A stretch of DNA of 64,000 nucleotides from Gammaproteobacteria bacterium (GCA_028817405.1 JAPPPS010000105.1:6757-70756), one strand, 5' to 3'. Shown: positions 11,449-59,607, counted from the stretch's first letter. Notes: generated by a model not told the origin, from the letters alone. A program made the numbers and translations.

Positions 11449-11570
11449 CGCGGCGCGCTGAATCGTCCAAATTACCGTCGCGCCACCGCTGAACCTTTAC
11501 CTTAGCTTTCGCCAACAGCCGCCACCGTCGCCATCAAGCGTCGCCGCCCTACCCTATTTCCGCCCCCGCC

Positions 11571-13373
11571 ATGCGCACCCATTTAAGCGGCCAATTGCGC
11601 CGCGCCGACATCGGCCAGCGCGTCTCGCTGGCCGGCTGGGTGTTGAACCGCCGCGACCACGGCGGGGTGATTTTCATCGACTTGCGCGACCGCAGCGGCG
11701 TGGTGCAGGTGGTCGCGGACCCGGACGCGCCGGGGCCGTTTGCGGTGGCCGACAAGGCGCGCGCCGAGTTCGTGCTGCGCGTGGAAGGCGCGGTGCGCGC
11801 GCGGCCGGACGGCACCGTCAACCCCGACTTGCCGAGCGGCGACATCGAGGTGGCGGCGCAAACCATCGAGTTGCTGAACCGCGCCGAGCCGCTGCCGTTT
11901 CAAATCGACGACGAGGATTTGAGCGAGGCGACGCGCCTGAAATACCGCTTCCTGGACCTGCGCCGCGCGCCGATGCAAACCGCGCTGCGCCTGCGCCACC
12001 GCGTGGTCAGCGCCATCCGCGGCTTCCTCGACGCGCGCGATTTTGTCGACATCGAAACGCCGGTTCTCACCCGCTCCACCCCCGAAGGCGCGCGCGATTA
12101 TTTGGTGCCGAGCCGCACCCATCCCGGCGCGTTTTTCGCGCTGCCGCAGTCGCCGCAGTTGTTCAAGCAACTCCTGATGGTCGGCGGCTTCGAGCGCTAT
12201 TACCAAATCGCGCGCTGCTTCCGCGACGAAGACTTGCGCGCCGACCGCCAGCCGGAATTCACCCAGTTGGATGTCGAGATGGCGTTCGTCGACGAGGCCG
12301 AAGTGATGGCGTTGATGGAGGAGATGCTGCGCGAGGTTTTTGAACTCGCGGCCGGCGTCGAGTTGCCTGCGCCGTTGCCGCGCATGACTTGCGCCGAGGC
12401 GCTGGCGCGATACGGCAGCGACCGCCCGGACTTGCGCGTGGATTTGGAATTGACCGAGTTGACCGACTTGATGACGACGGTGGAGTTCAAGGTGTTCTCG
12501 GGCCCGGCCAGCGACCCGACCGGGCGCGTGGCGGCGTTGCGCGTGCCGGGCGGCGGGGCTGACGGTGGCGACGGTGGCGCCGGCATCTCGCGCGCGCAAA
12601 TCGACCACTACACCGAATTCGTCGGCCGCTTCGGCGCCAAGGGCTTGGCGTATATCAAAGTGGGCGACGCATCGGCCGGGCGCGACGGCTTGCAATCGCC
12701 GATTCTGAAATTCCTGCCGGACCAAGTGCTGGCGCAAATCCTCGAGCGCAGCGGCGCGGCCAACGGCGATTTAATCTTCTTCGGCGCGGACAAAGCGGCG
12801 GTGGTGAACGCCGCGCTCGGCGCGTTGCGGGTGGAAATCGGCCGCGACTTGTCGCTCGCCGCGCCGGGCTGGCGGCCGCTGTGGGTGGTGGACTTCCCGC
12901 TGTTGGCGTGGAACGAAGATGCGAAGCGGTTTGAAGCGCAGCACCACCCGTTCACCGCGCCGCGCGCGGCCGACATCGAGGACTTGGAAAGCGCGCCCGA
13001 GCGGGTACTGTCGCGCGCCTACGACTTGGTTTTGAACGGCGTGGAAATCGGCGGCGGCTCGATTCGCATCCACCAAGCCGAGTTGCAGCAGCGCGTCCTG
13101 GCAACGCTCGGCATCGACGCGGCGCAGGCGCGCGCGCAGTTCGGCTTTCTGCTCGACGCGCTGCAATACGGCGCGCCGCCGCACGGCGGCATCGCTTTCG
13201 GCATCGACCGCATCGCCGCCATGTTGGCCGGCGCCGACTCCATCCGCGATGTCATCGCCTTCCCCAAAACCCAAAGCGCATCGTGCCTGCTCACCGAAGC
13301 CCCGGGCGCCGTCGACGCCGGGCAATTGCGGGAGTTGGGGTTGCGGGCGGCGAAAACGCGGACCGGGAAATGA
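11571..13373 (+). CDS. aspS: aspartate--tRNA ligase
   Basis: 600 aa. OB-fold N-terminus '[22 protein letters not shown]', '[18 protein letters not shown]' and the 'GGGSIRIH' class II motif 3 region. Confidence 0.97.
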
Positions 13374-14632
13374 ATACAATGGCGCGCAAACCTGTCCCCA
13401 AAAACAAACTGTATGTCGGCGACAATTTGGATGTGATGCACGGCATGAATAGTTGCACGGTGGATTTGATTTATCTCGACCCGCCGTTTAATTCCAAGCG
13501 CATGTATCGCGCCCCCATCGGCAGTTCGGCGGACAAAAAGGCCGCAAAGAAAGGCCGACAAGTCGGCTTCCACGACATTTGGGTGTGGGAGAAGGATGTC
13601 GACATTCGACTGCTGTCTTTTTACGAGAGTCATCCCGACTTGTTCACCTACATCGATTTGGTGGGCAAGATGAACGGCGCGTCAATGAAAACCTATTTGA
13701 CTTTTATGGCGCAGCGGTTGATTGAAATGCACCGCATTCTTAAGGACACCGGCAGCGTCTATTTGCACTGCGACCCTTATGCCAGTCACTATCTGAAACT
13801 TTTGATGGACGAGATTTTCGGCAAGCACAATTTTCTCAACGAAATGATTTGGTACTACACCAACGCGTCCCGCGGCAAAAAGAAACTGGCAAATTCCCAT
13901 GATGTGATTTTCTGGTATTGCAAAAACAACGCTCAATACACTTTCAACCGGGACCGCATCCTGCAGGAATTCGCCAGCGGCATGACCGAGTGGCGGTACA
14001 GCAAAGGCGGGCAGGCCGGGCAAAAAATGCCGAAAGGGAAAACCCCCGACGATGTGTTCATCTTGCCGTCGCTGAACGCGATGTCAAAAGAACGCACCGG
14101 TTACCCAACGCAAAAACCGCTGGCGTTGCTCGACCGCATTATTCAAGCGTCGAGCGTTGAGGGCGACATGGTGATGGACCCGTTCTGCGGCTGCGCGACC
14201 ACTTGCGTGTCGGCGCAAAATCACCACCGCAATTGGATTGGCATCGATTTGGAGGATGTGGCAATCGATTTGGTGGTTGACCGGCTGAGCGAAACCGACA
14301 ACGGTCAAACCACGATTCAGTTCAACGATTTCATCGCCAGCAAAACGCCGCCGGTGCGCACCGACCTTGAGACATTGACCTGGACCAAGAAACGCATTCA
14401 CGCGCACTGCTTCGACAAACAAAGCGGCCGTTGCAACGGCTGCAAGAAACCATTCGAGGCGTATCACTTGGAAATCGACCACATCTACCCTAAGTCGCTC
14501 GGCGGGGCGTGGCTGCTGGAAAACTTGCAACTGTTATGCGGCAACTGCAACCGCATCAAAGGCGACCGCCCGATGGAATACTTGCGCGCGCGACTGGCCG
14601 AACGCCGCGAACGGCAAAAAGCGGTTTTCTAA
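13370..14632 (+). CDS. DNA methyltransferase (beta-class, DPPF) fused to a C-terminal HNH nuclease domain
   Basis: Motif IV '[12 protein letters not shown]' and motif I '[12 protein letters not shown]'. C-terminal HNH: '[25 protein letters not shown]...[14 protein letters not shown]'. The ATG at 13370 overlaps the aspS TGA (ATGA); an alternative ATG lies at 13379. About 50% GC by eye. Confidence 0.85.
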
Positions 14633-14636
14633 ACGG

Positions 14637-15380
14637 TTAACCGTCGCCGCATTCCGCGCACTGTGGATTCTTCGGCAGTTGCATGCGTTGCCATTCCATG
14701 GCGCGGGCGTCGAACAGCCATACCACGCCGTGCAGTTGACCGTTGCCGAGCAGAATGTTGACGCCTTCCATGGCTTGCATCGCGCCGATGACGCCGACCA
14801 ACGGGGAAATCACGCCTTCCATTGCGCAGGTGGCGGTGTCGACCGAATCGTCCGGATACATGCACCTGTAGCACGGGCTGGCCGGCGCGCGCGGGTCGAA
14901 AGCGGTGACCTGGCCCTCCCAGCGAATCGCGGCCCCGGACACTAACGGCGTGCGGGTTTGCAGCGCCACCCGGTTCATCTCGAATCTGGTGGGGAAGTTG
15001 TCGGTGCAGTCAAGCAGCAGGTCGGCGGCGGCCGCGCCGTCGCGCAAGTCGCCGGCGTCCAGCGAGTAGTCGAGCGTGGCGATGTCGACTTGCGGGTTGA
15101 GCGCGCGCAGGGTGGCGGCGGCCGACGCGGCTTTGAGTTCGCCGATGTCGGCGTGGGCGTGGATGATTTGCCGCTGCAGGTTGGATTCGTCGACGCGGTC
15201 GAAGTCGGCAAGGGTCAAATGGCCGACCCCGGCCGCGGTTAAGTACATCGCGGCCGGCGCGCCGAGGCCGCCCATGCCGACGATGAAAACCCGCGCCTCG
15301 CGCAGTTTTAATTGCCCGGCCTCGCCCACCTGCGGCAGACGAATCTGGCGGCTGTACCGGGTGTGAAAATCGCTTGCCAT
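14637..15380 (-). CDS. MoeB/ThiF-family adenylyltransferase (molybdopterin-synthase adenylyltransferase-like)
   Basis: 'YSRQIRLPQVGEAGQLKL', Rossmann 'VGMGGLGAPAAMYL' and two CxxC pairs (CYRC, CAEC). ATG at 15380; an alternative GTG lies at 15398. Confidence 0.85.
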   Translation of the reverse strand: MASDFHTRYSRQIRLPQVGEAGQLKLREARVFIVGMGGLGAPAAMYLTAAGVGHLTLADFDRVDESNLQRQIIHAHADIGELKAASAAATLRALNPQVDIATLDYSLDAGDLRDGAAAADLLLDCTDNFPTRFEMNRVALQTRTPLVSGAAIRWEGQVTAFDPRAPASPCYRCMYPDDSVDTATCAMEGVISPLVGVIGAMQAMEGVNILLGNGQLHGVVWLFDARAMEWQRMQLPKNPQCAECGDG

Positions 15381-15469: not shown

Positions 15470-18223
15470 ATGTTTCAACACGCCCTCAAACGCCTGTTCG
15501 GCGACCGCAACCAGCGCCTGCTGAAAAACATCGGCAAAACCGTCGAGCGCATCAACGCGCTGGAAGCCGGCATGCAGCAGTTGGACGACGCGGCGTTGGC
15601 CGCCAAGAGCGTCGAGCTGCGCGCGCGCATCGCCGACGGCGCGAACAAAGACGACTTGTTGGTCGACGCTTTCGCGGTGGTGCGCGAGGCCTCGGTGCGC
15701 GCGTTGGGCCTGCGTCATTTCGATGTGCAGTTGGTCGGCGGCGTGGCGTTGAACAGCGGCAAAATCGCCGAGATGAAAACCGGCGAGGGCAAAACTTTGG
15801 TCGCGACGCTGCCGGCGTATTTGAACGCGGTGGCCGGGGTGCCGGTGCATATCGTCACCGTCAACGATTACCTGGCGCGCCGCGACGCCGAATGGATGGG
15901 CGCGATTTACCGTTTCCTGGGCTTAAGCGTCGGCGTTATCGTGCCGGGCCAGGACGCGGAGGAAAAACGCGCCGCATACCAATCCGACATCGTCTACGGC
16001 ACCAACAACGAATTCGGTTTCGACTACCTGCGCGACAACATGGCGTTCACCGCCGCGGAACGGTTTCAACAAGGCCTCGGTTTCGCCATCGTCGACGAAG
16101 TCGATTCCATTCTCATCGACGAAGCGCGCACACCGTTGATTATCTCCGGGCCGGCCGAAGAGAGCACCGGCTTATACACCCGCCTCGACAAAATCGCGCC
16201 GCGCCTAGCGCGCCAGCACGGCGAAGACCAGCCCGGCGACTTCACCGTCGATGAAAAAACCCGCCAAGTGTATTTAACCGAACAAGGTTATGAGAACGCC
16301 GAGAAGTTGTTGGTCGACGACGGTCTCCTTCCGCAGGGCGGGAGTTTGTATGAAATCGGCAACATCGGTTTGGTGCATCACTTGTATGCGGCGTTGCGCG
16401 CGCATCACTTGTTTAACAAAGATGTCGCATACATCGTGCGCGACGGCCAGGTGGTGATTATCGACGAATTCACCGGGCGCATGATGGCCGGGCGACGGTG
16501 GTCGGACGGTTTGCACCAAGCCATCGAGGCGAAGGAAGGCGTCGCCATTCAGCAGGAAAACCAAACCTTGGCGTCGATAACTTTCCAAAACTATTTTCGC
16601 TTGTATGACACGCTGTCCGGCATGACCGGCACCGCCGACACCGAGGCCCCGGAGTTTTTGCAAATCTACCGTTTGGAAGTGGTGATTATCCCGACCAACC
16701 GGCCGATGATTCGCCGCGACGACGCCGACTTGGTGTACCGCAGCGTCGATGAAAAGTTCGCCGCGATTATCGACGGCATCAAAGCATGCCGCGCGCGCAA
16801 CCAGCCGGTGTTGGTCGGCACCGCGTCGATTGAATCCTCCGAACGGCTGTCGTCGCTGCTGCGCGCCGCAAACATCGCTCACCAAGTGCTGAACGCCAAA
16901 CATCATGACCGCGAAGCGCAAATCATCGCCGAGGCCGGCCGGCCCGGCAGCGTGACCATCGCCACCAACATGGCCGGGCGCGGCACCGACATCGTGCTCG
17001 GCGGCAACCTCGAACTGGAACTGGCGGCGCTGGAAGACGACGCGCAACAAACCGCGGCGGCCGCGGCGAAGGCGGCGTGGGAAGAGCGCCACGCCCAAGT
17101 CATCGCCGGCGGCGGCCTGCATGTGCTCGGCACCGAGCGCAACGAATCGCGGCGCGTCGACAACCAGTTGCGCGGTAGGTGCGGCCGCCAAGGCGACCCC
17201 GGCTCGAGTCGATTTTATCTGTCGCTGGAAGACAACTTGATGCGCATCTTCGGCTCCGAGCGCATCGCGGGCTTGATGCAAAAACTCGGCATGGAAGAAG
17301 GCGAGGCCATCGAGCATCCGTGGGTGACGCGCGCCATCGAGAACGCGCAGACCAAAGTCGAGGGCCACAACTTCGACGCGCGCAAACAACTCCTTGAATA
17401 CGACGATGTCGCCAACGAACAGCGCAAAGTGATTTACCAGCAGCGCGACATGCTGATGGAAACCGACGACATCGCCGACACCGTCGCCGACATGCGCGGC
17501 GAAGTGTTGGGCGGCGTCATCGCGCGCGGCATTCCGCCCGGCAGCATGGCCGAGCAGTGGGATGTCGCGGCGCTGGAACGCGACTTGGAAACCGAGTTCG
17601 GCATGAAGTTGCCGTTAACCGACTGGCTCGACAACGACGATTCGCTGCACGAAGAAACATTGCGGCAAAAAATCGAGACCGAAGTCGACGCCATGTTCGC
17701 GGCAAAGGAATCGCAAGTCGGGGCCGCGGACATGCGGCATTTCGAAAAGGCGGTGATGCTGAAAGTGCTGGACGAGCAGTGGAAGGAGCATCTGTTTAAC
17801 ATGGACCACCTGCGCCAGGGCATTCACTTGCGCGGTTATGCGCAGAAGAATCCGAAGCAGGAATACAAGCGCGAGGCGTTCGAGATGTTCACCGCGTTGA
17901 TGGACAATGTGAAGTTTGAAGTGACTTCGCTGCTGGCGCGTTTGCATATCCCAAGCGAAGAAGAAATTCGCGCGCTCGAAGCGCGGCGGCGATTGCAGTC
18001 GATGCGTTTCATTCACGCCGACGCCGAAGCGCCGGCCGCGGATGCGGGGAACGCCGGCGCGTCGCCGCGCATGGCCCGGCCGGCCGGCGCGCGCGCCGCC
18101 ATGCCGTCACAAACCGCGCAGCCGGCGCAACCATTCGTGCGCGGCGGCAAAAAAATCGGCCGCAACGCGCCGTGTCCATGCGGCTCGGGGAAGAAGTACA
18201 AACAATGCCATGGGAAAATGTGA
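15470..18223 (+). CDS. secA: preprotein translocase ATPase SecA
   Basis: 917 aa. Walker A 'MKTGEGKTL', DEAD-like '[19 protein letters not shown]', and the C-terminal zinc motif '[14 protein letters not shown]'. Confidence 0.98.
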
Positions 18224-27814: not shown

Positions 27815-27856
27815 GATATTGAACTTGCGGATTGTTAAAAATGCGTTTCGGCCATT

Positions 27857-29020
27857 CTACAACAATTTTTTCAGCAGTCCATATTGGTCAGCGTTCGCAT
27901 CGCTTGCATTAACGATGAATAGTCCAAACCCGTTCTTGTCGGCCTCGGCGACAATTTCCGAAATGAAAGTCCGGTCGGCGGCGCCGGCGTTGTTGTCGGC
28001 CAAGAATTGATTAATCTCGGCGTCGCTCATCGCGCTGTGCAAACTCCCCCGCACAACATCCGAAGTCAATCCAACGGCGGTTCGGTGCGGCATGCGTTTG
28101 CCGTTTATCATCAGCGTTTTAATGTTGCAAAACAGCGCTGATTTAATAAACGCGTCTTTGATGTCGATGCGCGACGGCAACCATTTATTTCGGGAGTGTT
28201 TTTTCTCAATCAAGAACACATGGCCAGACACAACGGTGCATTCATCGGCGGTCCAGTTATACAAACCGCCAATCAGGTTTTTCATGGTGACCGTGGCTTT
28301 GCGCGCCACGGTTTTCTCCTTGGGCTGGTCGGTTAAGCGCTCGCGGTTTTGCGCGTTTTCCGCCAACGCGCGCGACAATTGTTTAAATTTTGCGACATCG
28401 TCGGCGATGATTTGGATTCGCTTTTTAATGCCGCCTTCCCCGTGCAGGCGCACCCCGGTACGACGGGCAATATTACGATAGGAATCCAAAGTTAATCGGG
28501 CGATTTCGGACAATTGGTCCATCTGCAACAAATTCCAGTGCAAAGCGCTGGAATGATAATTGCTTAACTCACAAATTTTCTTGTGCACATGTTGGTAGTC
28601 CATGACTTGTTTGGTGATTTTATTTTTACGCGTCTGCCCGGGGCGCGTCGTTTTTTCCGCTTCCACATAATAGCAGGGGATTACATAAACATTCAGCACG
28701 CTCATCAGCGACACCGTGTCCCATTGCAAAAAATCACGGTCGCCGTCCGCGCCTTCATCTTTGCAGAACGGGATGAGAGTGACGCGGTTTTTCATGCGCA
28801 GCGTGTCGTAGACGCGCGCATAAGGAAAGGTGCGCGTCCTTTTAGGGGACAACCATTGGCTGACGGCAAATTTATTGCCGTTGCAATCAAGCAGAAACGC
28901 GCCTTTTGACTTCAGATTGCCCGCAAGCAAGTCGCCCGCCGTATATGATTCCAGTTCGACCGGAATGCGAGGTTCATATGTGACCTCTTGGAGTTCGGCA
29001 AAAATATTGACAAAATTCAT
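27857..29020 (-). CDS. putative restriction endonuclease (unassigned family; candidate PD-(D/E)xK site in the C-terminal half)
   Basis: 387 aa in low-GC sequence. It is the last gene of the M-M-R cassette, 9 nt after the Dam-like gene. Candidate catalytic motif 'WTADECTVVSGHVFLIEKKHS' (D259...E272-x-K274; nt about 28199-28246). I recognised no other family signature. Confidence 0.55.
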   Translation of the reverse strand: MNFVNIFAELQEVTYEPRIPVELESYTAGDLLAGNLKSKGAFLLDCNGNKFAVSQWLSPKRTRTFPYARVYDTLRMKNRVTLIPFCKDEGADGDRDFLQWDTVSLMSVLNVYVIPCYYVEAEKTTRPGQTRKNKITKQVMDYQHVHKKICELSNYHSSALHWNLLQMDQLSEIARLTLDSYRNIARRTGVRLHGEGGIKKRIQIIADDVAKFKQLSRALAENAQNRERLTDQPKEKTVARKATVTMKNLIGGLYNWTADECTVVSGHVFLIEKKHSRNKWLPSRIDIKDAFIKSALFCNIKTLMINGKRMPHRTAVGLTSDVVRGSLHSAMSDAEINQFLADNNAGAADRTFISEIVAEADKNGFGLFIVNASDANADQYGLLKKLL

Positions 29021-29029
29021 ATCGACCTC

Positions 29030-29884
29030 CTATGCGCTTGCAGGCGTTTGGTCCGCCTTTGTCGCATAGTCCCGACTCATGATGAGAACTTCGTTGGAAA
29101 CTTTGCTCGCATTCATGCCGTACGTCCATGTCGGCGTCTTAAACGGATAGCCGTTGTACAGTTCGCGCACCGTCTCGCAGTCGTTATACGACAGTAGCCA
29201 GTTGTCGTGTTGAGACAGCAGTTTGGCGAGGCCTTCATGGTCAAAATCCTGGTGATGGTCGCCGCGCGTGCCGTATAGTTTGGATGCGATGCAGTACGGC
29301 GGGTCCAGGTACAAAAAATCGGCGCGGTGGCGGGGAATGGATTCGCTGAAGTCGGCTTTGGCGACCTGCAGGTTCTGCAACTTAAAATCGCCCAGTCTGT
29401 TGATGCATGCGACGGTAAAACGCGGATGCCCTGGCGACATGCCCCCGGACAAAGTGGTGCCGGAAAAAGAGCAGCGGTTGAGGGCGAAGAACGCGGCCGC
29501 CGATTCGACGGGGTCGGCGATGTCGGAATGCCGTTTCTGCAGGGCGTAAAAGGCGTCCTTTTTCATCGGATAGTATCGCCGCACGGTGTCTGCCAAACCG
29601 GCCGCGTCTTCCAACAGCGTCCGCCAAAAATTAACCAGAGGTTGGAAGGCGTCGTAAGCGAAAACTTCAACGCCGCGCGCGGCCAGCGCCAACTCGACCG
29701 AGCCGCCGCCGATAAACGGCGAGCAGAGTCGCTCAATGCCGGGCGGCAACGCATCGAGAATGCAGTTGACGGCGCGAGATTTGCCGCCCGGATAACGCAA
29801 CGGCGATTTGGCTGTCGCGCGTTCCTGTTCGCCCCATGCAGGCGGCAGCATGGACGATTGTTTAAGCGGGGCGACGCTGTTCAT
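29030..29884 (-). CDS. Dam-like (D12-class, alpha) N6-adenine DNA methyltransferase
   Basis: 'PLRYPGGKSR', motif I 'SPFIGGGSVEL' and motif IV 'FLYLDPPY'. ATG at 29884, with 29851 as an alternative. The ORF-track N-terminal extension to 30058 overlaps the upstream gene and is rejected. Confidence 0.88.
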   Translation of the reverse strand: MNSVAPLKQSSMLPPAWGEQERATAKSPLRYPGGKSRAVNCILDALPPGIERLCSPFIGGGSVELALAARGVEVFAYDAFQPLVNFWRTLLEDAAGLADTVRRYYPMKKDAFYALQKRHSDIADPVESAAAFFALNRCSFSGTTLSGGMSPGHPRFTVACINRLGDFKLQNLQVAKADFSESIPRHRADFLYLDPPYCIASKLYGTRGDHHQDFDHEGLAKLLSQHDNWLLSYNDCETVRELYNGYPFKTPTWTYGMNASKVSNEVLIMSRDYATKADQTPASA

Positions 29885-31025
29885 CTTGTTGTCCGGTTGA
29901 CGGTTTTGTTTGGCCGGCGTGGTTCGCGCAGGAAATGATTTTTGCGGCGTAATCGATGTATTCTTTTTCGGTTTCCATGCCGATATGCCGGCGTCCAAGT
30001 TTTTCCGCCGCCAGATTGGTAACCCCGCTGCCGGCGAAGATATCCAAAACAACGTCATTCATGTAGGAATAATAACGGATGACGCGGCTGGCCAGTTCTT
30101 CAGGGAACGGGCATGGGTGGATATTTTCGCGCGGCGCCACCGGGCGAATATTCCACACATTCTTGCTCTGCTCTTGATAACCGGTCAAGTCCATCCGGTT
30201 CGCGCGCTTTTCAGCCGCCGTTCGGTCATGGTAGATGTTGTTTTTGGATTTTTCACCGGCCGGTTTTTGGAAGACGAAAACATACTCCACGGATAAACTC
30301 GGGTAGTAGTAGCCGGGATAAGGGTGTTGCATGAGAACGCCGCTGCGCTTGTCTTTGACAATGCCCTTTTCCCAGACAATATCTTCCTTGAACTGCCAGC
30401 CCAGTTCCTCCATCCAACAGACAAAATGAAACGGCAACGCCATGCGTTTTCCGCCCCAGGCCACCGGAGAAATGTTGACTACATTGTGTCCGCCGGGTTT
30501 GAGCACGCGATACAACTCTTTGAATCGGTCCACCAGGAACACTTTGTAAAATTGATATGATTGCTCTTTGCGCTCCCAATAGCGCACCTCGCCGCCGAGT
30601 TTTTTAATATGGTCGGCGTAGTTGATGGCGTTGTGGTAAGGCGGCGAAGTGAACGCCAGTATGATGCTGTTGTCGGCAAGCGTTTTTAGCCCGTCCAAAC
30701 AATCGCCGTGGATAAACTCCCCGCGCCCCGCCGAATACGTCTTCAGTTTTTCCCGGGTGGTTCTGAATCGCCCGCCCAACTCCAGCGCGGAAATGATTTG
30801 TAACGCCTTGTTTTTGCCGACTCCGTTAAATTTTGTCAAATCTCCCACGGTAACTTTCGTACCCAGGTTGGCGCGCAGATAATCCACCAACTCCCGGCTC
30901 AAGTTTTTGATGCTGTTATTTTTGGCCCCGGTGCCGAGCAAAACTGAAATCAACTCCTCCGTTGATAACTCGGACGGCGGATTTTCCAGCAGTTTCTCGC
31001 GGGGCTGTTGGGATGCGGAGGTCAT
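29862..31025 (-). CDS. beta-class DNA methyltransferase (SPPY, possibly N4-cytosine) with a RadC-N-terminal-like HhH domain
   Basis: The N-terminal 90 aa, 'PREKLLENPPSELSTEELISVLLGTGAKNNSIKNLSRELV...FNGVGKNKALQIISALELGGRF', resemble the RadC/UPF0758 N-terminal HhH region. Then come motif IV 'LAFTSPPYHNAINY' and motif I 'VVLDIFAGSGVT'. ATG at 31025; the ORF track uses a TTG at 31034. Confidence 0.85.
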   Translation of the reverse strand: MTSASQQPREKLLENPPSELSTEELISVLLGTGAKNNSIKNLSRELVDYLRANLGTKVTVGDLTKFNGVGKNKALQIISALELGGRFRTTREKLKTYSAGRGEFIHGDCLDGLKTLADNSIILAFTSPPYHNAINYADHIKKLGGEVRYWERKEQSYQFYKVFLVDRFKELYRVLKPGGHNVVNISPVAWGGKRMALPFHFVCWMEELGWQFKEDIVWEKGIVKDKRSGVLMQHPYPGYYYPSLSVEYVFVFQKPAGEKSKNNIYHDRTAAEKRANRMDLTGYQEQSKNVWNIRPVAPRENIHPCPFPEELASRVIRYYSYMNDVVLDIFAGSGVTNLAAEKLGRRHIGMETEKEYIDYAAKIISCANHAGQTKPSTGQQDEQRRPA

Positions 31026-31048
31026 GTTATCCAATGCAGTAGATGCGT

Positions 31049-33730
31049 TTATACCGTAACCGGATTTGGTTTATCCGGATTAATGCCGTATTTTTCCAGC
31101 GCCGTGCGGCAGGCGTCGGCCGGGAGCAGTTCGTCTTCGACCAATGCGTGCAGCGCTTGCGCCGTGACATGCGCGCTGTCGACTTCGAAGAATTTGCGCA
31201 GTTGCGCGCGGGTGTCGGAGCGGCCGAAGCCGTCGGTGCCGAGCACATAATACTTGCGCGGCACGAACGCGCGAATCTGCTCCGCATACAAACGGATGTA
31301 GTCGGTGGCGGCGATGACCGGGCCGGCGGCGTTTTCCAAACACATGCCGACGAACGATTGGCGCGGCGCAACATCTTTCGCGCCTTGATGCCGCGCGTTG
31401 TGACGGGCCGCGGCCTGGCCGTCGCGCGCCAGTTCGTTAAAACTGGTGACGCTCCAGATGTCCGAGGTGACTTGATATTCCGCGTCCAACATCTCGGCCG
31501 CGGCCTCCACTTCGCGCAAAATCGCGCCGCCGCCGAGCAGAGTGACTTTCAGACGGTTGTCCGGCTTGCCGACGCTGCGCAGCAGATACATGCCGCGCAC
31601 GATGCCTTCCTCGGCGCCGGCCGGCATGGCCGGATGCGGGTAGTTTTCGTTCATCACCGTGATGTAGTAGTAGATGCTCTCCTGCTCTTGGTACATGCGC
31701 CGCAAGCCGTCGTGAATGATGACCGCCAACTCGTAACCGTACGCCGGGTCGTATGAGACGCAGTTCGGCACCGTGGACGCTAACACTAAACTGTGACCGT
31801 CCTGATGCTGCAAGCCTTCGCCGGCCAAGGTGGTGCGCCCGGCGGTGCCGCCTAAGATAAACCCGCGCGCGCGGCTGTCGCCGGCCGCCCAGCACAAATC
31901 GCCGATGCGCTGGAAGCCGAACATGGAATACAAAATGTAGAACGGAATCGCGCACACATCGTGGTTGCTGTACGCGGTGGCCGCGGCAATCCATGACGAC
32001 ATCGCGCCGGCCTCGTTGATGCCTTCCTGCAGCACTTGGCCTTCGCGGCTCTCACGGTAGAACATCAACTGGTCGGCGTCTTCCGGCTCATAAAGTTGGC
32101 CCTTCGGCGAGTAGATGCCGAGTTGCCGGAACATGCCTTCCATGCCGAAAGTGCGCGACTCGTCCGGGATAATCGGCACGATGTGGCGCTTCAAATTCGG
32201 CTCGCGCACCAGCGCCGAGAGGATGCGCACGAACGCCATGGTGGTGGAGATGTTGCGCTTGCCGCTGCCGTCGAGTTGCGACTGGAACAGCGACAGCGGC
32301 GGTACTTCGAACGGCGGTTTGCTGAAAGTCCGGCGCGCCGGCAGAAAGCCGCCCAAGGCGCGCCGGCGCTCCAGCAAATACTGCGTCTCCGGCGAATCTT
32401 CCGGCGGACGGTAGAACGGCGCGCGCGCCACCTCCTCGTCGGTCAGCGGAATGTTGAACCGGTCGCGGAACGCCAACATCGCGTCCTCGCCCATTTTTTT
32501 CTGCTGGTGGGTGGTGTTCTGGCCCTCGCCGGCCTCGCCCATGCCGTAGCCCTTGACGGTCTTGGCGAGAATCGCGGTCGGCTGGCCGCGGTGCTGCACC
32601 GCGGCCGCGTAGGCTGCGTAAATTTTATGCGGGTCATGGCCGCCGCGGTTCAGCCGCCACACATCGGCGTCGGTCATGTTGGAGACCATCTCGCGCAGTT
32701 CCGGGTATTTGCCGAAGAACTTCTCGCGCACGAAGCCGCCGTCCTTGGCTTTGAACGCCTGGTATTCGCCGTCCACCGCTTCTTCCATGCGCTGCTTCAG
32801 CAAGCCCTTGTCGTCGCGCATGAGCAGCGGGTCCCAGTAGGAACCCCAGATGACTTTGATGACATTCCAGCCGGCGCCGCGGAACTCGCTCTCCAATTCT
32901 TGGATGATTTTGCCGTTGCCGCGCACCGGGCCGTCCAAGCGTTGCAGGTTGCAGTTGACCACGAAAATCAGGTTGTCGAGGTTCTCGCGCCCGGCCAGCG
33001 ACAGCGCGCCGATGGACTCCGGCTCGTCCATCTCGCCGTCGCCGGGGAACGCCCACACCTTGCGGTCGCCGGCGTCCACCAGGCCGCGGTGGTGCAGGTA
33101 TTTCATAAACCGCGCCTGGTAAATCGCCATGAGCGGCCCCAAGCCCATGGACACGGTCGGGAACTGCCAGAAGTCCGGCATCAGCCACGGATGCGGGTAC
33201 GACGAGACGCCGTCGCCGCCGACCTCCTGGCGGAAGTTGCGCAGATGCTCCTTGTTCAACCGCCGCTCCAGATACGCGCGCGCGTAGATGCCCGGCGCGG
33301 AGTGGCCCTGGATGAACAGCATGTCGCCGAGTTGCGCGTCGTTCGGCGCGCGCCAGAAGTGGTTGAAGCCGACATCGTACAGGGTCGCGGCCGAGGCGAA
33401 ACTGGCGATGTGGCCGCCCAACTCGCTGGAGACGCGGTTGGCGCGCACCACCATGGCCAGCGCGTTCCAGCGAATCAGCGCGCGGATGCGCCGTTCCAGC
33501 GCGTGGTCGCCGTCGCTGCGCTGCTCCAGATGCACCGGAATGGTGTTCAGATACGCGGTGTTGGCGCGGTACGGAATGTGCGCGCCGGAGCGCCGCGCGT
33601 GGTCGATGAGTTGCTCGATGAGGTAGTGCGCGCGCGCGTGGCCCTCGCGCTCGATGACCGCGCTCAGCGCGTCGAGCCATTCGCCGGTCTCGACGGCATC
33701 GACATCGGGCGGCGGCTGGTTTTCGGACAC
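31049..33730 (-). CDS. aceE: pyruvate dehydrogenase E1 component (homodimeric type)
   Basis: 'DVDAVETGEWLDALSAVIEREG' N-terminus like E. coli AceE, ThDP motif 'GDGEMDEPES' and length near 890 aa. GTG start at 33730 is preferred over the ORF-track start at 33850. Confidence 0.95.
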   Translation of the reverse strand: MSENQPPPDVDAVETGEWLDALSAVIEREGHARAHYLIEQLIDHARRSGAHIPYRANTAYLNTIPVHLEQRSDGDHALERRIRALIRWNALAMVVRANRVSSELGGHIASFASAATLYDVGFNHFWRAPNDAQLGDMLFIQGHSAPGIYARAYLERRLNKEHLRNFRQEVGGDGVSSYPHPWLMPDFWQFPTVSMGLGPLMAIYQARFMKYLHHRGLVDAGDRKVWAFPGDGEMDEPESIGALSLAGRENLDNLIFVVNCNLQRLDGPVRGNGKIIQELESEFRGAGWNVIKVIWGSYWDPLLMRDDKGLLKQRMEEAVDGEYQAFKAKDGGFVREKFFGKYPELREMVSNMTDADVWRLNRGGHDPHKIYAAYAAAVQHRGQPTAILAKTVKGYGMGEAGEGQNTTHQQKKMGEDAMLAFRDRFNIPLTDEEVARAPFYRPPEDSPETQYLLERRRALGGFLPARRTFSKPPFEVPPLSLFQSQLDGSGKRNISTTMAFVRILSALVREPNLKRHIVPIIPDESRTFGMEGMFRQLGIYSPKGQLYEPEDADQLMFYRESREGQVLQEGINEAGAMSSWIAAATAYSNHDVCAIPFYILYSMFGFQRIGDLCWAAGDSRARGFILGGTAGRTTLAGEGLQHQDGHSLVLASTVPNCVSYDPAYGYELAVIIHDGLRRMYQEQESIYYYITVMNENYPHPAMPAGAEEGIVRGMYLLRSVGKPDNRLKVTLLGGGAILREVEAAAEMLDAEYQVTSDIWSVTSFNELARDGQAAARHNARHQGAKDVAPRQSFVGMCLENAAGPVIAATDYIRLYAEQIRAFVPRKYYVLGTDGFGRSDTRAQLRKFFEVDSAHVTAQALHALVEDELLPADACRTALEKYGINPDKPNPVTV

Positions 33731-51687: not shown

Positions 51688-53184
51688 TCAACCACGGTCG
51701 GCGGGCCAGGCGAGCGGCGCGGCGAAATGCCCGCGGGTCAATTCAGCCAACGCCGCGGCGCAGTAAAAACCTTGGCATCTCCCCATGCCGGCGCGGGTGC
51801 GGCGTTTCAGCGCGCCGAGACCGGCGGCGCGCAGGGGGCCGTCCAGCGCGCGCAGGATTTCGCGGCGGGTGACCCGTTCGCAGTGGCAGACGATGCCGCC
51901 GTTGCCGGGGGTCTGCCAGTCGCGGGTTTGGTTTTCCGCCAAGGCGCTGGTTTGCGGCCAGGATGGCGGGGGCGGGCGGCCGCGGCCGGCGCGGTCGCGG
52001 TCGCCGCCATCGAAATCAGCGCAGGCATTAAAAACATGCCCGGCGATGCCGAGCGCGGCGCTCAGGCCGGTCGAGCGAATGCCGCCGACGCTGACATAAC
52101 GGCGCGCCGGGTGCGCGGCGATGCGGTAGTCGGCGGATTCGGTGGCCGGGCGGATGCCCGCGTAGGCGGCGGTGACGGCGTGGCTTGCCAACGCCGGCAG
52201 CCGCCGCTCGCCGATGGCGCGCAGTTCGCGCAGCATGGCGGCGGTGGTCGCGGCGTCGTCGCGGCTGTTTTGCGGCTCGGAGGACGGCCCGACCAACACA
52301 TTGCCGAACACCGTGCGGCAGATGATGACGCCCTTGCTCGCCGCGCCCGGCGGCGGGTAGAGCGCCGCGCGCAGCAGGCGGTAGGCGGATTTGTCATAGA
52401 CCAAAAACTGCCCCTTGCGCGGGCGGATGCGGAACGCGGCGCGGCCGAGCAACGCGGCGTCTACGCGGTCGCCGTACAAGCCCGCGCAGTTGATAACGCA
52501 AGCGGCGCGCAACCGGCCGCGGGAGGTGCGCAGCGTCCAGTCGCCGTCGAAGCGTCCGCCGGTCACCGCGCAGTCGCGCAGCAATTTCGCGCCGTTGCCG
52601 AGCGCCTGCAGCAGATAGGCGTGCGGCGCGCTCCACGGGTCGATGACGGCCTCGCCGGGGATGTCGAGCGCGGCCCGGACATCGGCGGCGAGGCGCGGTT
52701 CGCGGGCGCGGACTTGCTTGGCGGTGAGCAGTTTGGCGCCGGCGATGCGGTTGGCGCGCGCGCGTTGCAGCGCCGGGTCGAGGCGCGCCGATTCGTCGCC
52801 GTTCCACGCCAACACCAGCGCGCCGGTTGCCAGCAGCGGCAGGTTGAGGCGGGCGCGGATGCGCAAATATTCTTCGCGCCCGGCGACGATGCAACGGTGC
52901 TCCAGCGAGTCGGGCCGGGCGTCGAAGCCGGTGTGCAAAATCGCGGTGTTGGCTTTACTCGCGCCGTCGAGGATGTCCGCGGCTTTCTCGACGCACAACA
53001 CCTTCGCGCCTTCCAACGCAAACCGCCGCGTCACCGCGCAACCGACCACGCCGGCGCCGATGACGATGACATCGAATGCCTCGGATGACGGCGCGGCCGG
53101 CGCATCGGACGGTGAAGCGGCGGCCGATGGCGCAACAAACGCCGGCGCGGCCGGCGGCGGTGAATGAGAATCGCGAGTTGGCAT
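51688..53184 (-). CDS. FAD-dependent glycerol-3-phosphate dehydrogenase/oxidase-like enzyme with a C-terminal BFD-like [2Fe-2S] domain
   Basis: 'DVIVIGAGVVGCAVTRRFALEG' and 'ASKANTAILHTGFD'. C-terminal 'CHCERVTRREI...GMGRCQGFYC'. Confidence 0.8.
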   Translation of the reverse strand: MPTRDSHSPPPAAPAFVAPSAAASPSDAPAAPSSEAFDVIVIGAGVVGCAVTRRFALEGAKVLCVEKAADILDGASKANTAILHTGFDARPDSLEHRCIVAGREEYLRIRARLNLPLLATGALVLAWNGDESARLDPALQRARANRIAGAKLLTAKQVRAREPRLAADVRAALDIPGEAVIDPWSAPHAYLLQALGNGAKLLRDCAVTGGRFDGDWTLRTSRGRLRAACVINCAGLYGDRVDAALLGRAAFRIRPRKGQFLVYDKSAYRLLRAALYPPPGAASKGVIICRTVFGNVLVGPSSEPQNSRDDAATTAAMLRELRAIGERRLPALASHAVTAAYAGIRPATESADYRIAAHPARRYVSVGGIRSTGLSAALGIAGHVFNACADFDGGDRDRAGRGRPPPPSWPQTSALAENQTRDWQTPGNGGIVCHCERVTRREILRALDGPLRAAGLGALKRRTRAGMGRCQGFYCAAALAELTRGHFAAPLAWPADRG

Positions 53185-53336
53185 GGCGCGGGCGGGCGCA
53201 TGAAGTGCGGCGGCGTTTGCGATGATAGCATTTAGGGTATATTCGCGGCGTAGATTTTGTTGTTCTGCCGTTTTACATTTTGCCGCCGCCGAATTCACCG
53301 CGCGCCGCGCGCATCGACGCCGGCCGGAATCATCGC

Positions 53337-53873
53337 ATGCCCAAGTTCATCCGCGTTTATGTCAAGACCGTCGATGCCGCGTCGACTGCAGTCGGGCGGC
53401 TGGCGATGCTGGCGATATTTTTGATGATTGGCACGCTGCTGCTCGGCGCCGTCACGCGCAACATACTTAACCTGCCGCTGTCGTGGACGGTGGAGATGGC
53501 GCAGTTCACCATGACCGCTTACTACATCGTCGGCGGCGCGTATTCCATGCAACTGAACAGCCATGTGCGCATGGACTTGTTCTACGACCGGTTGTCGGAC
53601 AAAACCAAAGCGCGGTTGGACAGTTTCACCAGCGTGTTCCTGGTCGTTTATTTGGTCTGCCTGCTCATCGGTTCGATTTCCAGCACGCTGTACGCGATTG
53701 AATACGGCCAGCGCAAGTTCTCGCAGTGGAATCCGTCGCTGGTGCCGATTAAAGTGATGATGGTCGCGGGCATCGTGTTGATGCTGCTGCAGGCGGTGTC
53801 CACGATGTTCAAGGACTACGCCAAATCCAAAGGCGTCGATTTGCAACAAGACAACGACAACGCGCGCGCATGA
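53337..53873 (+). CDS. TRAP transporter small permease (DctQ-like)
   Basis: 178 aa with 4 TM helices. ATGA overlap with the following DctM gene. ATG at 53337. Confidence 0.8.
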   Translation: MPKFIRVYVKTVDAASTAVGRLAMLAIFLMIGTLLLGAVTRNILNLPLSWTVEMAQFTMTAYYIVGGAYSMQLNSHVRMDLFYDRLSDKTKARLDSFTSVFLVVYLVCLLIGSISSTLYAIEYGQRKFSQWNPSLVPIKVMMVAGIVLMLLQAVSTMFKDYAKSKGVDLQQDNDNARA

Positions 53874-55195
53874 GTTACGAAGCCATCGCCATCTTGATGT
53901 TCGCGTCGATGCTGCTGTTGCTGCTGACCGGGCAGCGCGTGTTCGCCGCCATCGGTTTTGTGTCCGCGGCCGCGGCGCTGTTGTTGTACGGCGAAGGCGC
54001 GGTGGAGATGCCGTTCAACGCCGCGTTCAAACTGTTCAACTGGTATCCGGTGCTGACCCTGCCGCTGTTTATTTACATGGGTTACATCCTGTCCGAGTCC
54101 GGCATCGCCAACGATTTATACCGCATGTTTCATGTGTGGTTCGGCGGACTCAAAGGCGGCTTGGCGGTCGGCACCATCGGATTGATGGTGGTCATCTCGG
54201 CGATGAACGGTTTGAGCGTCGCCGGCATGGCCATCGGCGCCACCATCGCGCTGCCGGAAATGCTGCGGCGCGGTTATGACAAGGTGATGATTACCGGCGT
54301 GGTGCAGGCCGGCAGTTCGCTGGGGATTCTGGTGCCGCCCAGCGTGGTGCTGGTTTTATACGGCATGATTGCGCGCCAGCCGGTCGGCCAACTGTGGCTG
54401 GCCGGCGCGCTGCCCGGTTTGATGATGGCGCTGCTGTTCATCATTTATATCGTGGTGCGATGCAAAGCGCAGCCGCATCTCGGACCCACGGTGGCGCGCG
54501 AAGAATTAACCATGCCGCTCGGCGAGAAACTGAAACTGCTGCGCGCCGGCATCATTCCGTTTTTGATTTTCTTCTTCATGACCGGCTTGTTCGTCATGGG
54601 CATCACCAGTTTGGTCGAGAGTTCCGCGGTCGGCGCCACCGCGGCCACGCTCGCGGCGCTGGCGAAGCGCCGGCTGACGCGCAAAGTCATGGAAGAGACC
54701 ATGCGCAAGACGCTCGGCATCTCGTGCATGTTCATGTGGATTATCCTCGCCGCGCTGTGTTTCGGCGCGGTGTTCGACGGCATCGGCGCGGTGCGCGCGA
54801 TTGAGTCGCTGTTCATCACCAAGTGGGATTTGAGTCCGTGGGAAGTGCTGATTATGATGCAGTTGTCGTATCTGTTCATGGGCATGTTCCTTGACGACAC
54901 CGCGATGTTGGTCATCGTCGCGCCGTTGTATGTGCCGCTGGTGATTACGCTCGGATTCGACCCGATTTGGTACGGCGTGTTGTATACCATCACCTGCCAA
55001 ATCGCGTATATGACGCCGCCGTTCGGCTATAATCTGTTCTTGATGCGCGCGATGGCGCCGAAGGAAATTCAGTTGGCGGACATCTACCGCTCGATTATAC
55101 CGTTCGTGTTGGTCATGGTATGCGCGCTGATTTTGGTCATGGCGTTCCCGCCCATCGCGTTGTGGTTGCCGGAGTTGGTTTACAGCAAAGGTTGA
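53870..55195 (+). CDS. TRAP transporter large permease (DctM family)
   Basis: 441 aa, polytopic, with typical DctM segments 'GLSVAGMAIGATIALPEM' and 'VIVAPLYVP'. Confidence 0.9.
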   Translation: MSYEAIAILMFASMLLLLLTGQRVFAAIGFVSAAAALLLYGEGAVEMPFNAAFKLFNWYPVLTLPLFIYMGYILSESGIANDLYRMFHVWFGGLKGGLAVGTIGLMVVISAMNGLSVAGMAIGATIALPEMLRRGYDKVMITGVVQAGSSLGILVPPSVVLVLYGMIARQPVGQLWLAGALPGLMMALLFIIYIVVRCKAQPHLGPTVAREELTMPLGEKLKLLRAGIIPFLIFFFMTGLFVMGITSLVESSAVGATAATLAALAKRRLTRKVMEETMRKTLGISCMFMWIILAALCFGAVFDGIGAVRAIESLFITKWDLSPWEVLIMMQLSYLFMGMFLDDTAMLVIVAPLYVPLVITLGFDPIWYGVLYTITCQIAYMTPPFGYNLFLMRAMAPKEIQLADIYRSIIPFVLVMVCALILVMAFPPIALWLPELVYSKG

Positions 55196-55200
55196 ACGCC

Positions 55201-55262
55201 GTCACCGTCACTTTCACCGTCACCGTCACTTTCACCGTCGCCGTCGCCGCCATCATCGTCAT
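55201..55262 (+). repeat. intergenic GTCACC-type array between the TRAP permease and binding-protein genes
   Basis: gtcaccgtcactttcacc (18 bp) occurs at 55201-55218 and 55219-55236. A degenerate gtcgccgtcgccgccatcatcgtcatc follows. Confidence 0.9.
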
Positions 55263-55304
55263 CGAACAGTTCAACTTTGTCTCACCATTCACCGGAGAAT
55301 CGTC

Positions 55305-56384
55305 ATGAAACCCAATCGAAGCAACGCCGATGCGGTCGCAAACCAGCGCCGCGACTTCATCAAAAAAGCCGGCGCCGGCAGCGCCGGCATCCTCGCGGCC
55401 GCGACCGCGCCGTACGCGTATTCCGCGACCAATCCCATCCGATGGCGGCTGCAAACTTACTCCGGCGCGCCGCTCGGCGCGCATGTCATCAAGCCGCAAA
55501 TCGAGGCCTTCAACCGCGCCGCGCACGGTCAGATGGAAATCGATTTGTACTACGCCGACCAATTGGTGCCGACCGATGAGTTGTTCCGCGCCATGCAAAA
55601 CGGCACCATCGATGCGGTGCAGAGCGACGATGCGACCATGGCGTCGCCGGTCGACATCAATGTGTTCGGCGGCTACTTTCCGTTCTCGACCCGATACAGC
55701 CTCGACCTGCCGGTGCTGTTCAAGTATTACGGCATGGACGAAATCTGGGCCGAAGCGTACGGCGAAGTCAGGGGCGTGGAATGGTTGGGCGCCGGCGCCT
55801 GGGACCCGTGTCACATCTTCACCAAGAAACCCATTCGCAGCATCAAAGACATGAGCGGCAAGCGCGTGTTCGGCGTGCCGACCGCCGGGCGGTTCTTGTC
55901 GCGGTACGGTTTGGTACCGGTGACGCTGCCGTGGGATGATGTCGAAGTCGCGCTGCAAACCGGCGAGTTGGACGGCGTCGCGTGGTGCGGATTCACCGAA
56001 GCGTACGAAGTCGGCTGGGCCGATGTATGCGACTACGCGCTTCTCAACAATGTCACCGGCGCATGGTGCGGTTCGTATTTCGCCAACACCCGCAGTTGGG
56101 AGGCGGTGCCGCCGCACTTGCAGGAGTTGTTCAAGTTGTCGATGGACAGTTCGCACTACTACCGCCAAGTGTGGTATTGGGGCGGCGAAGCCAAACTGCG
56201 CGCCGAGGGCAAGAAGATGGAACTGACCACGATTCCCGCCAACGAGTGGGAGCAAGTGGTCAAGGACGCGGAAGCGTTCTGGGATGAAATCGCCTCCATC
56301 AGCCCGCGCGCGGCCCGCGTGGTGCAGATTTTTAAGGACTACACCGCGGTGATGGAACAAGTCGGCGTGCCGTATCGATATTGA
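55305..56384 (+). CDS. TRAP transporter substrate-binding protein with a Tat signal
   Basis: 'RRDFIKKAGAGSAGILAAATAPYAYS' twin-arginine signal. DctP-type fold adjacent to the Q and M genes. Confidence 0.85.
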   Translation: MKPNRSNADAVANQRRDFIKKAGAGSAGILAAATAPYAYSATNPIRWRLQTYSGAPLGAHVIKPQIEAFNRAAHGQMEIDLYYADQLVPTDELFRAMQNGTIDAVQSDDATMASPVDINVFGGYFPFSTRYSLDLPVLFKYYGMDEIWAEAYGEVRGVEWLGAGAWDPCHIFTKKPIRSIKDMSGKRVFGVPTAGRFLSRYGLVPVTLPWDDVEVALQTGELDGVAWCGFTEAYEVGWADVCDYALLNNVTGAWCGSYFANTRSWEAVPPHLQELFKLSMDSSHYYRQVWYWGGEAKLRAEGKKMELTTIPANEWEQVVKDAEAFWDEIASISPRAARVVQIFKDYTAVMEQVGVPYRY

Positions 56385-56415
56385 CGGTGGTTATGGCGCG
56401 CGGCACACCGCGGTT

Positions 56416-57171: not shown

Positions 57172-57199
57172 GCGATTACGTCGCTGCGGCGGCGATAAC

Positions 57200-58048: not shown

Positions 58049-58085
58049 CGTGAACACCTGTCGGTTGAAGGTTGGATGGGAAGTT

Positions 58086-58127
58086 AACGAATCGAAATAA
58101 AACAAATCGAAGTCAACGAATCGAAAT
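58086..58127. promoter_or_regulatory. direct repeats AACGAATCGAAAT x2 (AATCGAA x3) in the AT-rich phnX upstream region
   Basis: The 13-mer occurs at 58086-58098 and 58115-58127, and the AATCGAA core also at 58105-58111. The repeats lie 38-79 nt upstream of the phnX ATG. An A7 run at 58130-58136 next to a GC-rich palindrome (cggccg) may serve as the queG terminator on the minus strand. Confidence 0.35.
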
Positions 58128-58236
58128 TTAAAAAAAGCGGCCGGGCAACGGCGCATCCGCGCGCGGCCGGCGGAAACGCAAAGTAGCGCAAAACCGCGCC
58201 GGCCGCAAATGGATATTTCGCGCGTTTGATATTGCC

Positions 58237-59478: not shown

Positions 59479-59607
59479 GAGATGCGTTGATGTTTTGTAA
59501 CCGTGCGGCCGCTTTTTGAGTTGTTGCAATTTTTGCAACAACTGGTCGCCCGGTCGCCGTTTGATTCCATGGTAGTGTAAAGTAAAACGCGCGCGAACTT
59601 AACCACC

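Follow-up and report, generated by a model that had tools for sequence, protein, structure and literature searches.

A putative Type II restriction endonuclease with a predicted C-terminal PD-(D/E)xK site and two unrelated methyltransferase partners at a gammaproteobacterial pyruvate dehydrogenase locus

A stretch of 64,000 nucleotides from Gammaproteobacteria bacterium (GCA_028817405.1, JAPPPS010000105.1:6757-70756), hereafter called the window, carries a three-gene operon on its minus strand in the order M1-M2-R. The last gene, R, was identified by ORF calling as a 387-amino-acid reading frame with an ATG start (27857-29020, minus strand). A perfect GGAGG Shine-Dalgarno sequence (29030-29026, minus strand) lies 5 nt before this ATG and overlaps the M2 stop codon. 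These features agree with the original prediction, which had placed a 387-aa protein at 27857-29020, in the R position of an M-M-R operon; in Pfam, the two partners match N6_N4_Mtase (M1) and MethyltransfD12 (M2). M2 (29030-29884, minus strand) has its true start at ATG 29884 and its stop at 29030, and encodes an alpha-class, D12-fold DPPY methyltransferase of the M.CbeI clade, probably a GGCC N4-cytosine enzyme (PF02086; PDB match 7m6b). The start of M2 overlaps the end of M1 by 23 nt. M1 (29862-31034, minus strand), which begins either at TTG 31034 or at ATG 31025, encodes a beta-class methyltransferase with an additional N-terminal UPF0758_N domain (PF01555 and PF20582) and a motif IV that reads TSPPYHN. 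Translational coupling of the three genes is probable to the same degree as the overall explanation of which it forms a part, which is set out below.

The cassette occupies 3.2 kb between aceE (stop at 31049) and aceF (start at 27814), and its G+C content is 50-57%, compared with 63-72% in the background. Only 14 nt separate the aceE stop from the M1 start and 42 nt the R stop from the aceF start, spacings that make read-through transcription from the pyruvate dehydrogenase operon likely. Two copies of an 8-bp direct repeat, AAACGCAT, mark off the cassette exactly: the upstream copy (31050-31043, minus strand) overlaps the aceE stop codon, and the downstream copy (27848-27841, minus strand) lies between the R stop codon and the aceF start codon. 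No integrase, transposase, or terminal inverted repeats were found around the cassette. Three metagenome samples hold a 98%-identical copy of R with the same gene neighbourhood, aceE-M-M-R-aceF-recO, and an 82%-identical copy, at locus L092, also lies between aceE and aceF, the products of these two L092 genes being themselves ~82% identical to their window counterparts. When the window is compared with L092, R, M1, M2, aceE, and aceF all have dS values of 0.47-0.62, and dN/dS is 0.18 for R, 0.16 for M2, 0.07 for M1, 0.20 for aceE, and 0.33 for aceF. The shared site and the equal dS values indicate that the cassette has been inherited vertically since before the window and L092 lineages split. 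Purifying selection acts on R about as strongly as on the housekeeping genes next to it, and the L092 protein keeps ADE...LIEKKHS.

R contains the peptide WTADECTVVSGHVFLIEKKHS, in which a candidate nuclease motif consisting of D259, E272, and K274 had been proposed (codons at 28244-28246, 28205-28207, and 28199-28201, respectively, minus strand). In an alignment of 59 homologs with 42-82% identity to the window protein, D259, E260, E272, K273, and K274 are all invariant, a degree of conservation that, judged from the alignment, is far above chance. The proposed motif was thereby borne out, its residues being invariant and lying on consecutive beta-strands of the predicted model described below. 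The description of the first 240 residues as showing nothing recognisable did not hold up in the same way, as the densest invariant block of the whole protein in alignments A1 and A2 is found there, at S54-S107 (28700-28861, minus strand). Its consensus, SQWxSPKRTRxxPYxRVY...IPFxKDEGxxGDxDFxQWDxxSLMS, is rich in Arg/Lys and Asp/Glu, and the block may constitute a DNA-recognition element.

An AlphaFold2 model of R, based on the 59-sequence alignment (pLDDT, 92.3; pTM, 0.89), contains a mostly beta N-terminal domain (residues 1-140), long helices (residues 142-229), and a C-terminal alpha/beta domain (residues 240-387); residues 190-387 modelled alone gave a pLDDT of 91.8. The C-terminal elements follow one another as a helix with the invariant E227, beta1 with K241, beta2 with D259 and E260, beta3 with E272-K273-K274, a further helix, and beta4, and as modelled this order is that of the canonical alpha-beta-beta-beta-alpha-beta PD-(D/E)xK core. 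D259 is placed on the predicted strand 253-264, and E272 and K274 on the predicted strand 267-276. Invariant residues, models, Foldseek matches, and a PADLOC profile (PDLC03474, see below) delimit the predicted catalytic core to residues ~209-305 (28106-28396, minus strand).

Foldseek searches with the whole R model against the PDB and BFVD gave no significant match (best E value, 0.21), and none of the matches of the isolated C-terminal domain against the PDB was individually significant (best E value, 0.011). About 22 of the top 50 domain matches, by our own classification and none of them individually significant, are PD-(D/E)xK nucleases, including DUF4297, McrC, VC1899, human Exo5, BbvCI, Cas4 SSO0001, Hjc, AF1548, OkrAI, RecU, AdnAB, Avs4, DdmD, and the R2 endonuclease. 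Taken together, conservation and predicted topology provide good support for D259/E272/K274 as a putative active site, at a level short of a rigorous fold match. As for the predicted division of labour within the protein, the modelled PD-(D/E)xK core does lie at the C terminus, behind an N-terminal domain and a helical linker, while recognition by the N-terminal domain stays a suggestion.

R belongs to a family for which a profile already exists. The PADLOC profile PDLC03572 (REase_II, Type II restriction enzyme) matches R with an E value of 4.6e-75 (251 bits), aligning R residues 30-304 with profile positions 30-301 of 371. Ten further family members score 121-335 bits against it; the highest score, 335 bits over nearly the full length, belongs to a ~350-aa thermophile/archaeal branch, which is thus the one nearest to the seed of the profile. 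R residues 257-341, the putative catalytic core, align specifically with another REase_II profile, the short PDLC03474. We take the PADLOC restriction-modification profiles, PDLC03572 among them, to be derived from REBASE reference enzymes; if so, the R family has a catalogued prototype. The suggestion that R might represent a new restriction endonuclease family accordingly had to be given up, since a profile of presumably REBASE origin already covers it.

Describing the family as unrecognised was nevertheless right in one respect, as it has no Pfam or NCBIfam model and no solved structure; the PDLC03572 match is what the description missed. Searches of Pfam, NCBIfam, and PDB sequences with the single R sequence and with a family profile returned nothing, or coiled-coil noise only, and R alone had no Pfam match at an E value of ≤1. 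Every R homolog named in its source is labelled "hypothetical protein", and a tblastn search of R against annotated plasmids and phages, which sought a named homolog, gave no match. No named, biochemically characterised member was found in an archaeal-only profile search, in clusters of divergent representatives, or in the PADLOC scan. The family itself is very large. A single-sequence search with R yielded 955 matches, the family comprises 363 representatives at the 50% identity level, a profile of its archaeal members matched at least 4,255 proteins at an E value of ≤1e-10, and GTDB species representatives hold at least 545 family loci in many bacterial phyla and in archaea. Archaeal carriers include Haloquadratum, Methanoperedens, Archaeoglobus, Woesearchaeota, and Nitrosopumilales. 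In essentially all of ~90 related loci, bacterial and archaeal, the R homolog adjoins a DNA methyltransferase. On these sequence comparisons, R is a putative Type II restriction endonuclease and a member of a very large, already profiled family.

The methyltransferases provide the first indication of a target site. In M1, a RadC-like helix-hairpin-helix domain (UPF0758_N, PF20582; residues 6-77) precedes the N6_N4_Mtase domain (PF01555), and the SPPY form of motif IV that it carries is typical of N4-cytosine methyltransferases. M1 is 77-79% identical to the beta-class methyltransferases of loci L005, L094, and L001, 63-67% identical to those of Ignavibacteria and of locus L003, and 59% identical to the one beside an R-family member in Haloquadratum walsbyi. 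REBASE-derived tables list a beta-class methyltransferase of H. walsbyi, possibly this same one, as a GGCC N4-methylcytosine (m4C) enzyme, and the beta-class m4C enzymes M.SuaI and M.PhoI also protect GGCC. M2, with its D12 fold (PF02086) and DPPY motif, is nearer to M.CbeI than to Dam-type adenine methylases: its best PDB match is 7m6b, which is M.CbeI (E value, 2.5e-32), compared with 1.7e-08 for DpnM and ~1e-4 for Dam. M.CbeI of Caldicellulosiruptor bescii is itself an alpha-class enzyme of D12 fold with DPPY and produces N4-methylcytosine in GGCC (PMC8616854, PMC3425538), and its relatives DmtB and M.Ssp6803II are GG(m4C)C enzymes by experiment (PMC3425538, PMC6105098). Full-length identity to M.CbeI is 44-52% for the D12 partners of R-family members, compared with 57% between the two characterised enzymes M.CbeI and DmtB. 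M2 itself shares only 34% identity with M.CbeI and forms, with its nearest D12 relatives, a divergent branch (34-38%); its identity to the D12 enzyme of locus L096, where that enzyme is the only methylase, is 68%. At 34% identity, GGCC can be put forward as the specificity of M2 by extrapolation, and m4C chemistry is likewise presumed for both M1 and M2.

How the two methyltransferase classes are distributed over the family was read from six-frame ORFs of 84 related loci, searched with the window M1, M2, and R, and from called genes inspected in further loci. R is accompanied by a beta-class methyltransferase alone, directly upstream, in ~30 loci, including all archaeal ones; by a D12-fold methyltransferase alone, directly downstream, in ~35 loci, mostly of Bacteroidota, Ignavibacteria, and Acidobacteriota; and by both in ~15 loci. 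The same variation is seen within the ~60%-identity subclade of the window protein, where L005 has the beta-class enzyme only, L096 the D12 enzyme only, and L094 the arrangement beta-R-D12. As R occurs with either class alone, one enzyme of either kind appears to be enough. A palindromic site would lead one to expect this, and an asymmetric site, each strand of which has to be protected separately, would not allow it. M1 and M2 are thus most likely redundant protectors of a single site, most probably the palindrome GGCC.

These architectures bear directly on the Type IIS-like enzyme that had been inferred from the pairing of R with two different methyltransferases, that is, an enzyme with N-terminal recognition, C-terminal cleavage, and an asymmetric site protected by one methyltransferase per strand. 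The window does hold two different methyltransferases, and the R model does show a pair of globular domains with long helices between them and the nuclease motif in the C-terminal one, as such an enzyme might. Many loci, however, make do with one methyltransferase, of whichever class, an economy that an asymmetric site would not permit, and for both partner classes the matching enzymes act on the palindrome GGCC. We consider a Type IIS enzyme highly improbable.

Tetranucleotide counts in the flanks of R-family-bearing loci, compared with expectations from a second-order Markov model, point to the same site. Across 55 loci and 334 kb of flanking sequence, no other of the 256 tetranucleotides is as depleted as GGCC (206 observed, 907 expected; observed/expected ratio [O/E], 0.23); CTAG (O/E, 0.48) and GATC (O/E, 0.57) come next. 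GGCC lies below expectation in 53 of 53 loci. The most avoided word around the family is hence a palindrome rather than an asymmetric word, which again speaks against a Type IIS enzyme. The nearest relatives of the window cassette conform to this pattern: observed and expected counts in their flanks are 0 and 10 for L005, 0 and 4 for L007, 0 and 11 for L009, 13 and 72 for L094, 10 and 87 for L096, and 2 and 33 for L097. Such avoidance in the relatives' hosts implies real cutting. Two other palindromes were weighed as targets. CTAG, the site of BfaI/MaeI/MthZI-like systems, was considered on account of the m4C-like M1 and the occurrence of the family in haloarchaea and Bacteroidota, and was dropped because M2 is M.CbeI-like and because GGCC, not CTAG, is the outlier in the avoidance test. 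GATC, suggested by a DpnII-like architecture, was rejected given that R has no DpnII Pfam match, that M2 is M.CbeI-like, and that GATC is nearly absent from the host.

The window lineage differs from every other host examined in that GGCC is not avoided. The window contains 680 GGCC sites against 732 expected (O/E, 0.93), and the flanks of the 98%- and 82%-identical R orthologs (L089-L092) likewise show no avoidance (O/E, ~0.9-1.0 for the window, L089, and L092). A recent horizontal arrival of the cassette, which could have explained this, is weakened as a cause by the 82% ortholog between aceE and aceF and by dS values equal to those of the flanking genes; having been inherited vertically, the cassette is no newcomer on which the missing avoidance could be blamed. 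Avoidance does vary with architecture, the O/E of GGCC being 0.07 in loci with the D12 enzyme only, 0.27 in those with the beta-class enzyme only, and 0.54 in those with both. This trend, in which the presence of both methylases goes with milder avoidance, suggests that a host with redundant methylation pays less for self-restriction, although L094, which also has both, avoids GGCC strongly and runs counter to it.

The absence of avoidance could also mean that, within the same endonuclease family and fold, specificity has drifted in the window lineage, leaving a Type IIP enzyme that acts on another palindrome. In favour of this, the window, L089, and L092 lack GGCC avoidance even though the system is functional and old, and M2 and its nearest D12 relatives are indeed divergent, with 34-38% identity to M.CbeI. 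In addition, the host is nearly devoid of GATC (2 sites in 60 kb), AGCT, CTAG, and ACGT, a sign of strong restriction pressure on other 4-bp sites. These four rare palindromes, however, are not consistently depleted around other R-family members, and orthologs as close as 60% identity for R, 77-79% for M1, and 68% for M2 reside in genomes that avoid GGCC five- to tenfold. The putative DNA-reading N-terminal block is invariant across the family, and the generally weaker avoidance at loci with both methyltransferases (O/E, 0.54) could account for the anomaly in another way. Altered specificity, although the main rival reading for this lineage, thus appears unlikely to us.

The same anomaly could be accommodated if R were not an active nuclease at all. 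It might then be a partner of the methyltransferases that binds DNA in a methylation-sensitive manner or has a regulatory role, or an endonuclease that has decayed. Besides the host's indifference to GGCC, the lack of a significant structural match to a solved nuclease and of any traced family member with biochemistry would be compatible with an inactive R. Yet neither the catalytic-type triad nor the accessory acidic residues vary, L092 included, dN/dS is 0.18, PDLC03572, a profile built from restriction enzymes, matches R, and GGCC is strongly avoided in the hosts of its relatives. We regard loss or absence of nuclease activity as very unlikely.

Comparison with known systems helps to place the cassette. 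The SuaI/M.SuaI system of Sulfolobus acidocaldarius (GG/CC) probably resembles it in its GGCC target and in protection by N4-methylcytosine. Orlowski and Bujnicki (2008) assigned a "SuaI" subfamily to the PD-(D/E)XK enzymes of Type IIP (PMC2441816), the same fold and type that are predicted for R. Published suaI primers place TSPPYYN ~800 bp upstream of suaI, where M1 has TSPPYHN, and the beta-class methylase lies directly upstream of suaI, in the same orientation and with an ORF stop at the junction, which is the geometry of the R family. Unlike the SuaI system, the window adds a second, alpha-class methylase and the RadC-like helix-hairpin-helix domain on M1. No Sulfolobus entry was present among the R-family matches listed in the archaeal profile search and the cluster look-ups, and of two metagenome scans with DNA rebuilt from the suaI primers, one returned nothing and the other three unrelated methylase loci. 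SuaI, likened to R through its published description and primers, would be the best candidate for the named prototype of the family.

The CbeI system is similar to the window family in its methyltransferase type, M2 being 34% and the D12 partners 44-52% identical to M.CbeI, and in its gene order, as R followed by a D12 methyltransferase in ~50 loci corresponds to cbeI followed by M.CbeI. The endonucleases, in contrast, are unrelated. CbeI is a 326-aa RE_HaeIII protein (PF09556; E value, 7e-109; 364 bits), R has no match to RE_HaeIII in Pfam, and CbeI was ruled out as the named prototype once the C. bescii locus had been retrieved via M.CbeI, with a BLASTP E value of 63 between R and CbeI. DpnII/MboI/LlaDCHI-type cassettes (GATC) share with the window a three-gene operon of D12 and N6_N4 methyltransferases and one endonuclease. 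They differ in that R has no match to DpnII (PF04556), M1 carries SPPY rather than DPPY, and M2 is far nearer to M.CbeI (E value, 2.5e-32) than to DpnM (1.7e-08); with 2 GATC sites in 60 kb, moreover, this host would offer a GATC system next to nothing to protect. PhoI/M.PhoI of Pyrococcus horikoshii (GGCC) probably shares its target with the window system and has a beta-class m4C methyltransferase, the class of M1. R.PhoI, however, is reported to carry a degenerate "PI-ERL" motif and to have just one homolog (PMC2441816), whereas the window R has a canonical D...ExK motif and thousands of homologs, so that PhoI is a less likely prototype.

Our preferred explanation, which we hold to be probably correct, is that R is an orthodox Type IIP-like endonuclease with a C-terminal PD-(D/E)xK site and a GGCC target, guarded by M1 and M2. 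D259, E272, and K274, probably aided by E227 and E260, would hydrolyse DNA with Mg2+, while the invariant charged N-terminal block and the long helices would read DNA and form the dimer. The site cut would most probably be the palindrome GGCC, and M1 (beta class, SPPY) and M2 (alpha class, D12, M.CbeI-like), which are unrelated to each other, would redundantly N4-methylate cytosine in the GGCC sites of the host. The cassette would probably be expressed by read-through from the pyruvate dehydrogenase operon. In this scheme we infer the nuclease chemistry, the dimerisation, the GGCC specificity of the window copy, and the co-transcription.

The cassette reveals no new kind of defence system. Thousands of proteins in genomes and metagenomes that now carry the label "hypothetical", including those of archaea and sponge symbionts, can be annotated as Type II restriction endonucleases and probably as isoschizomers of HaeIII, in a large family that has neither a Pfam or NCBIfam model nor a crystal structure. 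The family would also illustrate how two unrelated classes of N4-cytosine methyltransferase can be swapped or stacked on one endonuclease. A bolder combined proposal is possible though doubtful, namely that the R family joins a PD-(D/E)xK core to an N-terminal DNA-reading domain of a fold absent from solved structures, and that the window cassette has become a stable fixture of the pyruvate dehydrogenase locus in which double methylation removes selection against the target site. The case also lends itself to asking, in a naturally occurring system, whether avoidance of the target site is relaxed when methylation is redundant.

The 3.2-kb cassette, carrying the genes for the methyltransferases M1 and M2 and the 387-amino-acid endonuclease R, is flanked exactly by an 8-bp direct repeat, AAACGCAT, with one copy at each edge (window 31043-31050 and 27841-27848). 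The cassette lies after the aceE stop and before the aceF start, and excision of the cassette together with one copy of AAACGCAT would leave a 34-nt aceE-aceF spacer. No mobility gene was found near the cassette. In the 82% ortholog between aceE and aceF (L092), the downstream copy of the 8-bp repeat is intact but the upstream copy is not. Relatives of the cassette also sit within operons, as an insertion in a Liv-type ABC transporter operon at locus L001 and as an insertion between carboxyltransferase and biotin carboxylase genes at locus L003. Elsewhere in the window, the stretches 13001-15000, 16001-18000, and 53001-60000 have a G+C content of 0.56 to 0.63, 5 to 10 points below the local background of 0.65 to 0.72, and may be further horizontally acquired segments.

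The characterized CbeI/M.CbeI pair of Caldicellulosiruptor bescii (CP001393; L085:3057-5840) has a phage-type integrase gene directly upstream and adjoins a DnaB-like helicase gene as well as genes for several HTH regulators; this pair is therefore carried by an integrated mobile element.

In M1, the beta-class methyltransferase domain is preceded by a helix-hairpin-helix domain of the RadC type (UPF0758_N; residues 6-77, window 30804-31019). This fusion occurs in the subclade of the window and in a small number of further relatives (L001, L005-L007, L009, L015, L020, and L094) but was not seen in most single-methyltransferase relatives. Endonuclease paralogs of ~1000 amino acids (proteins P0137, P0138, and P0152 belong to this group) are encoded directly upstream of an ordinary family member and a D12 methylase at L023:3153-6131, L050:3-2696, L062:2113-4920, and L073:842-3958. 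They consist of an unassigned N-terminal region, a von Willebrand factor A domain (residues ~365-470), and a C-terminal complete copy of the endonuclease, which shares 36% identity with R and retains the D...ExK motif as TCDE...LIEDKHS.

GGCC, the probable target of the endonuclease family, is not avoided in the host lineage, with an observed/expected ratio of 0.93 to 1.0 in the window (680 sites) and in the flanks of loci L089-L092, which include the 98% and 82% orthologs; it is avoided in all 53 of the other hosts examined. GGCC is not avoided even though the system was already present in the host lineage before a split at ~85% nucleotide identity and has been maintained by selection.

Palindromes were counted in the window with the cassette left out (1-27800 and 31100-64000), with expectations from a second-order Markov model. 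Four were nearly missing: GATC (2 observed, at 1287 and 45441; 245 expected), AGCT (3, at 11504, 15615, and 27548; 74 expected), CTAG (1, at 16205; 16 expected), and ACGT (7; 107 expected). Ratios for the remaining twelve 4-bp palindromes were 0.7 to 1.6. The same scarcity extends to the L089-L092 flanks and is partial in L006 ("Ca. Poriferihabitaceae") and in the ~60%-identity relative L094. The near absence of these four palindromes from the window implies that GATC, AGCT, CTAG, and ACGT have long been under intense restriction pressure in the host, or that some other mechanism acts on them.

Within the cassette (27857-31034), GATC (11 expected), AGCT (4 expected), and CTAG were absent, ACGT occurred 3 times versus 9 expected, and GGCC occurred 12 times versus 20 expected. 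Because it shares the tetranucleotide avoidance of its host, the cassette has been moulded by the same pressures, despite a persistently low G+C content, 10 to 15 points under that of the genome.
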